Sequence record: PV893055.1
Strand: one strand, 5' to 3'
Origin: Escherichia phage vB_EcoBD_211
Length of the DNA: 52,807 nucleotides
Made by a program: the position numbers and the translations under genes. Positions within the stretch are counted from its first letter, which is position 1. Each line of letters starts with the position of its first letter. The notes below the pieces were generated by a model. The model did no database searches, was not told the origin of the DNA, and saw only the letters and a program-made list of their open reading frames with translations. This document shows, one piece after another, positions 51,699-52,807 of the stretch.

Positions 51699-51721
51699 GA
51701 TGGCACTCAAGTAGTGCCATC
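51699..51721 (+). other. stem-loop followed by a conserved TTGAAATTATTCACAA element
   Basis: GATGGCACT-CAAGT-AGTGCCATC directly after the stop at 51691. Confidence 0.5.
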
Positions 51722-51755
51722 AATTGAAATTATTCACAATCAACAGGAGAGAAAC

Positions 51756-51914
51756 ATGCTTAAAATCAAACTGACCAAAGACCAGGCGATGGCCTTGCGG
51801 GATATGATGATTGAGTTAGAGAAGATGGGCACTTTTTCTGATAGTTCTCACACTTCAACTCTTGATTATATTGTTGAAGCCATTGACGACAAATTTTCAG
51901 GTTCTGAGGAGTAA
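51756..51914 (+). CDS. hypothetical small early protein (52 aa)
   Basis: ATG 51756 preceded by AGGAGAGAAAC; the track start at 51714 lies in the upstream hairpin region. Confidence 0.45.
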   Translation: MLKIKLTKDQAMALRDMMIELEKMGTFSDSSHTSTLDYIVEAIDDKFSGSEE

Positions 51915-51919
51915 TCAAA

Positions 51920-52177
51920 ATGACTGACGTTGAGATGAAAAAAGAACTGGACTTTTATGCTGAGCAGTATTGGGCTGAATGGGATGAAGGTTCACAAGAA
52001 TTTGCGGAACTGGTGATAGATTCAGGAATTGATGAAGTGCGCCAACACGCCTACATCATCAACATGAATCTGGCGTCAATTATGGGTATCATCGCCAGCG
52101 AATTTTCTGACGGCGAGCGGGACCATGAAGACGTTGTAAGACTGGCAAAAGTTATGGCTTGGGTGGATGCATTATGA
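51920..52177 (+). CDS. small acidic early protein (85 aa)
   Basis: ORF; Asp/Glu-rich. Confidence 0.5.
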   Translation: MTDVEMKKELDFYAEQYWAEWDEGSQEFAELVIDSGIDEVRQHAYIINMNLASIMGIIASEFSDGERDHEDVVRLAKVMAWVDAL

Positions 52178-52323
52178 AAGACAACTACACGCTTTGGTAC
52201 GATTGCAATGAAGGGCTATGGTGTGTCAACATTAATAATGGACCAGTTCCAGATTTTGAATCAATGGACGTGGAAGATTGTGTTGATTTCATCCAGTCGC
52301 AAGTAGTCAAATATCAAGGGTAA
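52174..52323 (+). CDS. hypothetical small protein (49 aa; not in the ORF track)
   Basis: ATGA overlap with the upstream stop; open to TAA 52321..52323. Confidence 0.35.
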   Translation: MKDNYTLWYDCNEGLWCVNINNGPVPDFESMDVEDCVDFIQSQVVKYQG

Positions 52324-52337
52324 GAGGGTCATACAAG

Positions 52338-52517
52338 ATGAAAGATTTGAAATTGACTAAAAAAGAAGTTGAGTTATTGGTTGAATTTCTTGACATTTCA
52401 ATATTTAATGAAAAGGAACTGCTGGAGGACTGGAAGGAGTCAATTGAAAACTTTGACCCTACTGACCAGGAAGAAAGGGTTGAGCTATTGACCAAAATAC
52501 TTAACAAATTGAAGTGA
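52338..52517 (+). CDS. hypothetical small acidic protein (59 aa; not in the ORF track)
   Basis: ATG 52338; Lys/Glu-rich helical-looking sequence. Confidence 0.35.
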   Translation: MKDLKLTKKEVELLVEFLDISIFNEKELLEDWKESIENFDPTDQEERVELLTKILNKLK

Positions 52518-52592
52518 TTTCAATCATGACAACTTGATGGAAGACTTCCGGCTGACAATTCAGATAGCAACAAAGTTAGTATAGTTTCAACA

Positions 52593-52621
52593 ATGAACTA
52601 TCCAAAGTTGTGATAGTTCAT
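52593..52621 (+). other. stem-loop followed by a conserved TTGAAATTATTCACAA element
   Basis: ATGAACTATC-CAAAGTTGT-GATAGTTCAT followed by TTTT; same architecture as 51699..51721. Confidence 0.5.
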
Positions 52622-52655
52622 TTTTGAAATTATTCACAACAAGAGAGAGAGAAAC

Positions 52656-52807
52656 ATGTACAGTGCAAAATGCGAAGATGGTATCTATACCGTATATTGT
52701 GACGGTAAAGTACTCAAAGTTCTGCCAAACGCCTTCAAGTTTGAGCAATTCATGACGGTGTTGTGGGAGAACCAGGAGATTAGTCGGGAAGACATTATTG
52801 ACCTGAT
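52656..52807 (+). CDS. hypothetical early protein, 5' part; continues at 3..365 across the junction
   Basis: ATG 52656 preceded by AGAGAGAGAGAAAC; in frame with 3..365. Confidence 0.6.
   Translation, partial: MYSAKCEDGIYTVYCDGKVLKVLPNAFKFEQFMTVLWENQEISREDIIDL

Follow-up and report, generated by a model that had tools for sequence, protein, structure and literature searches.

Escherichia coli RNase III typically acts on RNA of two helical turns (approximately 20-22 bp), possibly formed from coaxially stacked shorter helices (PMC1540722, PMC3867540), and internal loops limit the enzyme to one strand, so that protective 3' hairpins are left (PMC3867540, PMC1540722). The polycistronic early precursor of phage T7 carries five such signals (PMC3867540, PMC1540722). 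According to PMC1540722, the proximal box, as exemplified by T7 R1.1, consists of G-C at pb1, A-U or U-A at pb2 (G-C and C-G being excluded) and A-U at pb3. The distal box, as defined there, comprises U-A and U-G near the top of the approximately 11-bp helix between the cut and the loop. A second described system with the repeated intergenic layout reported below is that of the promoter-plus-stem-loop elements (PeSLs) of T4-type phages (Arbiol et al. 2010, PMC2839356; Comeau et al. 2014, PMC4122927).

The window analysed here, the 52,807-nucleotide sequence of Escherichia phage vB_EcoBD_211 (PV893055.1), is a complete Rosemountvirus (BP63-like) genome in circular assembly. The BP63-like group consists of phages of Salmonella and E. 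coli. The early cluster extends on the + strand from 50723 across the circular junction to 1348, and all of the PHROGs families matched by its proteins are of unknown function. A sigma-70-like promoter, TGTACA-17-TATAAT (50478-50506, + strand, 10/12 matches in the promoter scan), lies approximately 215 nt upstream of the first early gene; both its hexamers and its spacing are kept in six divergent relatives, and the polycistronic early transcript is presumed to start there. The sequence-only reading had described two intergenic units within this cluster as paralogous cassettes that segment the early operon. Both units are real and the suggestion of punctuating cassettes appears sound, but only two of the five units had been seen and their lower stem had been missed. 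The two look-alikes are members of a lineage-specific intercistronic RNA cassette family with five paralogous copies in this genome (UA, U0, U1, U2 and U3), all on the + strand.

Each cassette presents, in order, a stop codon, a lower stem of 5-11 bp, a small internal loop, an upper stem of 9-12 bp, a CA-rich leader, a Shine-Dalgarno sequence and an ATG. The 9-10-bp hairpin noticed previously exists, although it is only the upper tier of this two-tier structure. The 5' strand of the lower stem is the sequence around the upstream stop codon. An internal loop separates the two stems in every unit, most often CA/GA (19 of 39 units); units of the U1 type have TGA/AATT and those of the UA type ACCA/GCC. 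UA (50661-50701) is located in the 5' leader, the first early gene having its ATG at 50723; its upper stem (50670-50693) is GTGACTATTG/CAGTAGTCAC and its lower stem TTTCA/TGGAA (dG -25.6, z -4.3), and it is kept in relatives. U0 (51028-51066; dG -22.9, z -5.8) has an upper stem at 51035-51059, ATGACAACTT/AAGTTGTCAT, an internal loop CA/GA and a lower stem TCCAA/TTGGA, which differs by a compensatory change from the TTCAA/TTGAA of other units.

U1 (51686-51735; dG -22.5, z -3.9) is the first of the two units noted before. Its upper stem, GATGGCACT/AGTGCCATC at 51699-51721, is the hairpin that had been reported (9 bp, loop of 5), and its lower stem pairs the 5' strand GAGTAATTTT, containing the stop codon TAA (51689-51691), with the 3' strand GAAATTATTC across an internal loop TGA/AATT. 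The orthologous position in S144 carries a wholly different upper stem, CAGACCTCT/AGAGGTCTG. The first copy of the 16-mer TTGAAATTATTCACAA (51724-51739) is followed by an 8-nt spacer and by GAGAGAAACATG (51747-51758), with the Shine-Dalgarno GGAG at 51746-51749 and the ATG at 51756. U2 (52581-52633; dG -24, z -5.4), the second unit noted before, has the lower stem ATAGTTTCAA/TTGAAATTAT. The 10-bp upper stem assigned to it at 52593-52621, ATGAACTATC/GATAGTTCAT, is present and extends to 11 bp with a loop of 9 (52592-52622). The second copy of the 16-mer (52624-52639) precedes an 8-nt spacer, GAGAGAAACATG (52647-52658) and the ATG at 52656. In U3 (563-607; dG -22.9, z -3.3) the lower stem TGATTCAA/TTGAATTA begins at the stop codon TGA (563-565), the internal loop is CA/GC, and the upper stem (573-597), ATGAGGATTT/AAGTCCTCAT, is followed by CCCACAAGTGGAGG and an ATG at 627. 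Mini-ORFs starting from an ATG at the base of the upper stem (3, 6 and 11 codons) were discarded, being of unconserved length and devoid of a Shine-Dalgarno sequence. A 55-nt early spacer at 931-987 carries no unit; it was rejected as a sixth member since its fold is not significant (z +0.5).

The 16-mer TTGAAATTATTCACAA is indeed identical in U1 and U2 and occurs exactly twice in 52.8 kb, a genome-wide search at up to 3 mismatches finding no further copy. It is not, as had been supposed, a separate element following the hairpin: the 3' strand of the lower helix is made up of its first 10-11 nt, and in relatives the conservation of the 16-mer is limited to this lower-stem part (the rivia U2 has TTGAAATTATATCAAT). 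The element proposed to be shared at the start codons does mark the ATGs at 51756 and 52656, but the 13-mer AGAGAGAAACATG is exact in U2 only; U1 has GGAGAGAAACATG, which leaves 12 nt in common.

Several lines of evidence support the fold. Perfect hairpins of at least 8 bp number 17 genome-wide, three of them in this 1.6-kb stretch, and five two-tier hairpins occur in approximately 2.6 kb against approximately 0.26 expected from block shuffles; all five units are two-tier, with z scores of -3.3 to -5.8. A covariance model trained on U0/U3-type units only gave U2 (E=4.5e-4) and UA (E=0.044) as its best non-training matches in the genome and nothing outside the units at E<1; U1 was not recovered by this model. 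Among 30 distinct units, 145 cells are changed on both sides of a pair as compared with 47 in shuffles, none of 500 shuffles reaching 145, and 88.6% of cells are paired as against 30-47% when the partners are slid. The RNA fold is better on the sense than on the antisense strand in 33 of 39 units (mean 3.5 kcal/mol, Wilcoxon p=3e-6), a difference due to G-U pairs, and the covariance model likewise scores higher on the + strand. The units and their register were set by a hairpin parser, so the 100% pairing of the upper stem and of five lower-stem pairs is partly by construction. A MAFFT alignment of mixed units was abandoned because stems and loops differ in length and the gaps fell inside stems, which precludes a single structure line; the structural register with N padding that replaced it leans towards the structure. 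Covariation and sense-strand bias together show that selection acts at the RNA level, without thereby naming an enzyme.

The same cassettes are present in early-cluster intergenic spacers of 13 relatives, drawn from Rosemountvirus, Loughboroughvirus, fHy-Eco03, Erwinia phage SOI901 and one metagenomic contig, and amount to 23 distinct upper stems and 28 distinct lower-stem pairs. Scanning IMG/VR with the pattern TTTCAACA-N20-34-GATTGAAATTA returned 72 loci, of which only four are real units (SE13, ZCSE2, SE4 and L025, a new 52.8-kb relative); the remainder are unrelated conserved coding stretches of other phages. A looser flank pattern, CAAC-N22-36-YTGRAM, proved uninformative, with 30 matches against 19.6 expected and U3 missed. 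Searches of Rfam gave nothing at gathering thresholds and noise only at E<=10. On these searches the family is, by sequence, confined to this phage group.

The dimensions of the units resemble those of RNase III signals. Minimum free energy folds of 39 or more units give a main hairpin of 18-30 bp (median 23) with an upper stem of median 10 bp, the two-turn length of RNase III substrates. The same folding gives 17-23 bp in total and upper stems of 9-13 bp for the T7 sites, except that no lower stem is resolved in the fold of R1, which is left out of the total range. The internal loop present in every unit would be expected to influence cleavage as it does in known substrates. To compare individual base pairs we mapped the boxes onto stem positions from the numbering and text of PMC1540722, together with the T7 R1.1 sequence. 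Counting from the base of the upper stem, position 1 is A-U in 20/30 and G-C in 8/30 units (G-C in those of the UA type), position 2 is U-A in 25/30, U-A or A-U in 28/30 and G-C in 2/30, and position 3 is G-C in 28/30; on our mapping, these three positions agree with the proximal box consensus. Position 9 is U-A in 26 of 29 units, while at position 8 U-G is the commonest pair (12/30), followed by A-U (10) and other pairs (8). On the same mapping, UA and U3 match the distal box fully, U0 and U2 at one of two positions, and U1 is out of register; T7's own sites match it only partly. U1 also deviates in its internal loop of 3/4 nt and its 9-bp stem. Apart from the conserved positions the upper stem covaries freely. 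The conserved pairs appear to match the E. coli proximal box and, in part, the distal box in both position and identity, as mapped here, although they could in part reflect shared ancestry of the paralogues.

The RNase III sites are not annotated in the T7 records NC_001604 and V01146. We take the cuts at R0.5 and R1.1 to lie at 1468 and 5887, both of which fall on the U of UAU|GAU in the sequence. The R1.1 products of 47 and 13 nt (PMC6121014) agree with the position assumed at 5887.

We consider it somewhat better than an even chance (roughly 0.55) that the cassettes are host RNase III processing signals that cut the polycistronic early mRNA, a reading which accords with their anatomy. Of the alternatives offered in the sequence-only reading, namely duplicated terminator/promoter or RNase-processing cassettes, RNase processing seems to fit the anatomy, whereas the terminator/promoter half is not supported: no U-tract follows the stems and no sigma-70 pair is found in U1-U3 at the scan threshold. 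We infer transcription as a single unit, cleavage by RNase III and the position of the cut. Host RNA polymerase would transcribe the early cluster as one polycistronic RNA from the promoter at 50478-50506, and host RNase III would recognise each hairpin as it does T7 R0.3-R1.3. The enzyme would make one cut, in the 3' strand, at the internal loop or close to it; by analogy with T7 spacing this would lie approximately 3 nt past the last upper-stem nucleotide, near 51724/51725 in U1 and 52624/52625 in U2. The upstream message would end in a protective 3' hairpin and the downstream message would begin with an unstructured leader, roughly (U)UGAAAUUAUUCACAA...GGAG...AUG. The placement of UA between promoter and first gene, like that of T7 R0.3, suits leader trimming and not termination.

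At the DNA level the cassettes coincide with rearrangements. A gene order table of 13 genomes indicates that module order and content change at the units, so that, like PeSLs, they stand at the borders of indels and replacements with the modules between them shuffled. In AV127, the U1 hairpin and leader are joined directly to the gene that follows U2 (a U1xU2 deletion). In the present genome a recombination scar (52516-52590, + strand) combines the left half of a BP63-type U0 (52516-52540) with what remains of the 3' end of a K57-type gene (about 52539-52590): there is identity with BP63 gene 12 and the U0 left arm as far as ...CTTGA, and thereafter with the 3' end of gene K57 of rivia/KE24. 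The two parts were joined by microhomology; the scar has no significant fold of its own, and a similar one is seen in KE24. The scar, left by a translocated L59 module with half a U0, explains the 13-mer ATGACAACTTGAT, which had been reported to occur twice. Its first copy indeed occupies 51035-51047, within the perfect 10-bp inverted repeat that forms the U0 upper stem (51035-51059), but the second is at 52526-52538 and not at 52537-52549; this second copy is not a regulatory repeat, as it belongs to the left arm of a hairpin of U0 type that moved with the translocated gene. As the cassettes share flanks, they are substrates for homologous and microhomology recombination, which would delete, insert and reorder the gene modules they bound between related phages. 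It is possible, and we put it forward only tentatively, that the cassettes are dual-purpose processing-site modules, serving on RNA as RNase III signals that would divide the early polycistron into messages stabilised and translated separately, and on DNA, through their shared flanks, as portable gene-plus-cassette units that would be exchanged, lost and reordered between phages. This may represent PeSL-like shuffling built on RNA-processing signals instead of promoter-terminator pairs, in a myovirus terminal repeat. A variant in which a phage-encoded early protein rather than host RNase III recognises the CA/GA loop and flanks is less likely.

The alternative that survives best is that the hairpins function at the RNA level independently of RNase III, which we nevertheless regard as unlikely. 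They might block 3' exonucleases or RNase E and thereby make some operon segments more stable than others, act as spacers between neighbouring cistrons whose translation they uncouple or tune, or bind a phage or host RNA-binding protein or a phage endoribonuclease; the AU-rich stems could be mere stabilising or spacing hairpins. The covariation and sense-strand bias are compatible with this, as they do not name an enzyme, and the undefined functions of the early proteins leave room for a phage-encoded factor. The stop codon embedded in the lower stem, with a conserved unstructured leader after it, has a natural place here, since a terminating ribosome would open the lower stem. A plain barrier, however, leaves unexplained the constant two-turn length, the internal loop fixed at approximately 10 bp from the apical loop and the conserved pairs at the RNase III proximal and, in part, distal boxes, and UA, lying in the 5' leader, has no upstream cistron to protect.

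That the units are intrinsic terminators or attenuators generating an expression gradient along the early operon is very improbable. In its favour, the stable hairpins come immediately after stop codons, TTTTT follows U2 in this genome, and termination does occur at the stem-loops of T4-type PeSLs (PMC2839356). Against this, the terminator scan made no call at any unit; the upper stem is followed by GATTGAAA, AATTGAAA or GCCTGGAA and the lower stem by CA-rich sequence, the T-run of U2 reads GATTG in relatives, and any would-be U-tract would be base-paired within the conserved lower helix. The units have AU-rich stems, with neither a G+C-rich stem nor a U-run (tails GAUUGAAA, AAUUGAAA or GCCUGGAA), and UA stands between the promoter and the first gene.

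Still more doubtful is a PeSL-like arrangement in which each unit supplies its own early promoter, with TTGAAA as the -35 or TGAAATTAT as an extended -10. The layout (stop codon, AT-rich stretch, stem-loop, Shine-Dalgarno, ATG) and the position at indel boundaries do resemble PeSLs (PMC2839356), U0 contains ATGACA-16-CATGAT with an upstream TG, TGAAATTAT is loosely like an extended -10, and two units are marked as promoters in an annotation of S144 based on PhagePromoter. Yet the scan, at its threshold, detects no -35/-10 pair in U1, U2 or U3. No more than 32 nt separate the putative -35 from the ATG, and with TTGAAA in that role the -10 would coincide with the Shine-Dalgarno sequence, at 3-4 nt from the ATG. 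Moreover, the candidate hexamers lie in stems that vary freely among paralogues and orthologues while pairing is kept, and relatives do not share the downstream half of the 16-mer. The consensus sigma-70 promoter of PeSLs is absent from U1-U3, is matched at 9/12 in U0, and in UA is represented by a pair whose -10 overlaps the start codon; as for the terminator trait of PeSLs, a stem-loop is present in the units without a U-tract and without G/C tracts. We also considered TGAAATTAT as a protein half-site, since it recurs in an inverted repeat at 50291-50318, and rejected this because the half-site orientation is opposite to that of the units. Least probable of all is that the units are DNA-level elements only (recombination hot spots, selfish repeats or cruciform/protein-binding sites devoid of RNA function): their coincidence with deletion, insertion and translocation junctions, the conserved inverted repeat formed by their flanks and the probable location of the region within the terminal repeat are compatible with this, but G-U pairs make the structure strand-specific (sense better in the 33/39 units), both helices covary, which argues against sequence-specific DNA recognition, and the units are strictly intergenic, in one orientation and in fixed relation to stop codon and ribosome-binding site.

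If the RNase III reading is true, the T7 strategy, in which RNase III hairpins punctuate an early polycistron made by the host polymerase and remain as protective 3' stem-loops, arose independently in unrelated myoviruses that are therapeutic candidates (Rosemountvirus, Loughboroughvirus and kin). It would provide a markable feature for roughly 60 deposited genomes, in which these spacers are now blank or bear software-predicted promoters, and approximately 25 natural two-tier substrate variants for probing the recognition rules of RNase III. The mosaic make-up of the early host-takeover region in gene content would likewise be accounted for; one early-region gene of fHy-Eco03 is toxic to E. 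coli (PMC8145870). The cassettes are a testable extension of known biology and open no long-standing question.

With intrinsic terminators the units share a stable hairpin right after the stop codon; they differ in having no U-tract, in their AU-rich stems and lower helix, and in the copy before the first gene. The likeness to PeSLs is greater, as both are concentrated among small early genes of unknown function and stand where close relatives differ by insertions, deletions and replacements, recombination between neighbouring cassettes removing the genes between them. PeSLs, however, combine a consensus sigma-70 promoter with a terminator-like stem-loop, often with G/C tracts, where the present units have a two-tier helix. 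The T7 early signals (R0.3, R0.5, R1, R1.1 and R1.3) are likewise paralogous hairpins in the spacers of an early operon transcribed by host polymerase, the first lying between promoter(s) and first gene. In both systems approximately two turns are made up of an upper stem (9-13 bp in T7, 9-12 bp here), an internal loop and a lower stem, into which the upstream gene's stop codon is incorporated. At the foot of the upper stem both have A-(A/U)-G opposite C-(U/A)-U; U-G/U-A pairs occur at positions 8-9 in part of the sites, and R1.1 shares with the present consensus the 3' side AUGAUUGA. The internal loop is mostly a symmetric 2x2 (CA/GA) here as opposed to asymmetric 4/5 in R1.1 (PMC6121014), the present stems are AU-rich, and their carrier is an unrelated myovirus of approximately 52.7 kb without its own RNA polymerase (PMC7432712). 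The covariance model of the family found no match at E<=1 in the T7 early region (800-6600), and the relationship to the T7 signals is one of analogy and not of descent. The cassette family is a new example of an already known design rather than a new kind of element.

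The sequence-only reading had described two intergenic units in front of early genes, and both hairpins (51699-51721 and 52593-52621), both copies of the identical 16-mer that follows them (51724-51739 and 52624-52639), the shared ribosome-binding and start context and both gene starts (51756 and 52656) lie where it had placed them. The repeated 13-mer ATGACAACTTGAT is likewise present twice, with its first copy at 51035-51047, but the second is at 52526-52538 and not at 52537-52549; the string shared before the ATG exists but is only a 12-mer (GAGAGAAACATG), because U1 reads GGAGAG... 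and U2 AGAGAG.... When the spacers were folded as RNA, each hairpin proved to be only the top of a longer structure, in which the sequence immediately upstream, stop codon of the previous gene included, base-pairs with the initial 10-11 nt of the 16-mer (TTGAAATTAT-T), and a small internal loop divides this lower stem from the upper one. The idea of paralogous cassettes was right, although its anatomy was incomplete in missing the lower stem. A scan for two-tier hairpins identified five in the early cluster, compared with about 0.26 expected in that length from shuffles, all intergenic and on the + strand: UA (50661-50701), in the 5' leader ahead of the first gene, U0 (51028-51066), U1 (51686-51735), U2 (52581-52633) and U3 (563-607). 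Their common layout is (G)AGTRAT, containing the stop codon, an A/T-rich lower-stem strand (typically AGTTTCAA), CA, an upper stem (9-12 bp, loop 3-9 nt), GA, TTGAAATTATT, a CA-rich leader, GGAG or GAGG, and ATG. A covariance model (CM) trained on U0- and U3-type units only gave U2 (E=4.5e-4) and UA (E=0.044) as its best other matches in the genome, and no match at E<1 outside the units. U1, which has an internal loop of 3/4 nt, was not recovered by the model and is tied to the family through its anatomy and the 16-mer common to U1 and U2. The sole early spacer of more than 50 nt that lacks a two-tier hairpin (931-987, fold z +0.5) holds a copy of the 13-mer with two mismatches (943-955) and may be a decayed unit.

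Positions 52681-52807 exactly repeat 1-127 (a 127-bp terminal overlap), so the window is a complete 52,680-bp genome, assembled as a circle, whose early gene cluster crosses the ends of the window and goes on at position 1. Twelve small + strand ORFs make up this cluster, which runs from 50723 through the junction to 1348, with an 810-bp divergent intergenic region upstream and a convergent RusA-like gene at the far end. Every PHROG match of its proteins is to a family of unknown function, and we infer the label "early" from position and content. BLAST of 50000-52807 matched 56-61 phage records, the best at 94-97% identity; the top matches are the Salmonella and Escherichia phages KE24, rivia, BP63, UPF_BP2 and swi3, all of the genus Rosemountvirus, and remoter ones include Loughboroughvirus (ZCSE2, S144), fHy-Eco03 and Erwinia phage SOI901. 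The homologous region of fHy-Eco03 falls within a direct terminal repeat (DTR) of 3.7 kb, defined by experiment, and has one gene that is toxic to E. coli (PMC8145870). The homology to this DTR extends in the window from ~50150 through the junction to ~1905, from which the vB_EcoBD_211 early cluster is probably also within a DTR, of ~4.4 kb. At the presumed boundaries (50120-50150 and 1885-1912) an A-rich run stands beside CGCTGG/CCAGCG, in inverted orientation. Between the RusA-like and primase genes, 1980-2100 carries an (AAT)n / AT-rich low-complexity tract and then pyrimidine-rich sequence, annotated as a repeat_region in rivia and birk.

Cassettes of the same kind are found in the early spacers of all 13 relatives whose early regions were compared; among them are 23 distinct upper-stem sequences and 28 distinct lower-stem pairs. 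For example, the upper stem in the spacer after the 189-aa gene is GATGGCACT/AGTGCCATC in the window, CAGACCTCT/AGAGGTCTG in S144 and GATGGCATC/GGTGCCATC in fHy-Eco03, and compensatory sets in the lower stem comprise TTTCAA/TTGAAA, TCCAA/TTGGA, ATTAA/TTAAT, TTTTTA/TAAAAA and AATATC/GATATT. In a structure-registered alignment of 30 distinct units, which were chosen and registered by a hairpin parser so that full pairing in the upper stem and at five lower-stem pairs is in part a product of that choice but the diversity of pair types is not, paired cells amount to 88.6%, compared with 30-47% when partners are slid by 1-3 columns, two-sided changes occupy 145 cells, compared with 47 in column shuffles, and none of 500 shuffles attains the observed value, whatever the measure. 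In 33 of 39 units the fold is better on the sense strand than on the antisense (mean 3.5 kcal/mol, p=3e-6), because of G-U pairs, and the CM also scores higher on the + strand in the relatives; the structure is therefore under selection as RNA, in gene direction. The Rfam search returned no such family, and exact flanks in IMG/VR belong to this phage group only.

The folded spacers of the five RNase III signals in the T7 early operon look almost the same. Their upper stem measures 9-13 bp and closes a 3-5-nt loop; below it come an internal loop and a lower stem of 4-6 bp, whose start is the upstream gene's stop codon (UGAUAG... at R0.5), and the total paired length is 17-23 bp, compared with 18-30 bp (median 23) in our units. 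[quoted passage not shown] The positive determinants of the enzyme, as defined on T7 R1.1, are a proximal box that consists of G-C, A-U/U-A, A-U and then the pair beside the cut, and a distal box of U-A and U-G (PMC1540722). Within R1.1 (AAGGUCAUUC-GCAA-GAGUGGCCUU) these boxes are stem positions 3, 2, 1 and 9, 8 from the internal loop, which fits the PMC1540722 numbering (pb2, 9:30, lies eight pairs below the pair that closes the loop). The upper stem of the units varies freely at positions 4-7 and 10 and is conserved as A-U at position 1 (20/30), U-A at position 2 (25/30, with G-C in only 2), G-C at position 3 (28/30) and U-A at position 9 (26/29), and at position 8 the most frequent pair is U-G (12/30). 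Both boxes are fully matched by U3 and UA, and U-G is missing in U0 and U2. Around the T7 cut, which we take to be at UAU|GAU in R1.1 (Dunn and Studier), the 3' side reads CAUGAUUGAA in the units and UAUGAUUGAC in R1.1. The 47- and 13-nt products of R1.1 (PMC6121014) are consistent with this position.

The evidence favours RNase processing among the alternatives that the sequence-only reading had offered: the fold and its conservation, the bias towards the sense strand and the agreement with RNase III determinants are all observed, and we put at roughly 0.55 the probability that the cassettes are RNase III signals cutting an early polycistronic transcript. Co-transcription, cleavage and the cut position are predicted as follows. 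Host polymerase would start near 50513 and read through the cluster, and RNase III would make a single cut per cassette, on the 3' side, at or just below the internal loop; the upstream message would keep the upper hairpin as a 3' cap, and the downstream message would begin with an unstructured (U)UGAAAUUAUUCACAA leader before the SD. S144 is without its own RNA polymerase, and its authors assume host transcription (PMC7432712). A host-type promoter, TGTACA-17-TATAAT (50478-50506), precedes the cluster as a whole and lies in a block that is conserved in six lineages. Directly upstream of it, ~100 nt (50380-50477, AACTATATCAATTGCATACGAGAACCACTATCAATCGCAAGTGATTATCATTTCTAAAAACTTGCATAAACTTGCAA) holding a tandem CTTGCA repeat are almost invariant from Rosemountvirus to SOI901 and may be a UP element or regulator site. 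The divergent intergenic region also contains an inverted repeat (50291-50318, TGAAATTAT-N10-ATAATTTCG), conserved in 6/6 aligned lineages, that may serve as an operator, as a bidirectional element or within an origin; it shares the word GAAATTAT with the lower-stem strand of the units, in opposite relative orientation, and is flanked, upstream of the early promoter block, by two conserved copies of a C-rich motif, TTAyAACCCCyGCCGmACC (~50166-50190 and ~50340-50366).

The main rival to RNase III signals is an RNA role without this enzyme, as a stability barrier, in translational spacing or through another protein, which we consider unlikely. The promoter/terminator cassettes of the sequence-only reading are not supported: no U-tract follows any of the five units (tails GAUUGAAA, AAUUGAAA or GCCUGGAA; the TTTTT after U2 in the window is GATTG in relatives), a terminator scan called none of them, no -35/-10 pair was found in U1, U2 or U3 at the scan threshold, TTGAAA as a -35 would put the -10 on the Shine-Dalgarno, a few bases from the ATG, potential promoter hexamers are located in freely varying stems, and relatives conserve the 16-mer only in its lower-stem part (rivia U2 has TTGAAATTATATCAAT).

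Gene order in 13 genomes reveals replacements, insertions and whole-module reordering at the units. AV127 lacks three or four genes between U1 and U2, and the gene that follows U2 in the window is there joined directly to the U1 hairpin and a U1-type leader, with the crossover within the 16-mer/SD segment already noticed from the sequence. The 59-aa gene at 52338-52517 (L59) is a near-identical copy of BP63 gene 12, whose place in BP63 is ahead of U0, and it brought with it the left arm of a BP63-type U0 hairpin; at ...AACTTGAT this half-U0 arm is joined to the last ~50 nt of the gene K57, intact in rivia and KE24, and the junction is the second copy of the 13-mer. In KE24 (5350-5410) the same L59 gene and the left half of a U0-type hairpin sit as an insertion between genes H85 and K57, where 30 nt of the H85 3' end are duplicated at AAAGTT microhomology; this is a second, independent recombination scar using hairpin sequence. 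Other examples are the insertion of a unit with a 101-aa gene in S144 and SE13, and the 189-aa gene, which together with the U1-type hairpin downstream of it follows the E/B module in fHy-Eco03, KE26, SE1_KM and SOI901. The MKDNYT... gene (52174-52323; 3504-3653 in BP63) is the first early gene in BP63 and S144, immediately following UA; in the window it is fifth, behind the 85-aa gene, and the first slot is taken by a different gene, of 100 aa.

A CM search of T7 gave no match, so the likeness to the T7 signals is one of analogy and not homology. Promoter-early stem-loop (PeSL) cassettes of the T4 type are defined by a consensus sigma-70 promoter per cassette (PMC2839356), a feature that the units lack given the absence of a -35/-10 pair in U1-U3, the hexamers in variable stems and the partial conservation of the 16-mer; in how they recombine, the cassettes resemble PeSLs. 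The cassettes would represent a lineage-specific, previously undescribed member of the T7-type RNase III punctuation class, with PeSL-like recombination behaviour.
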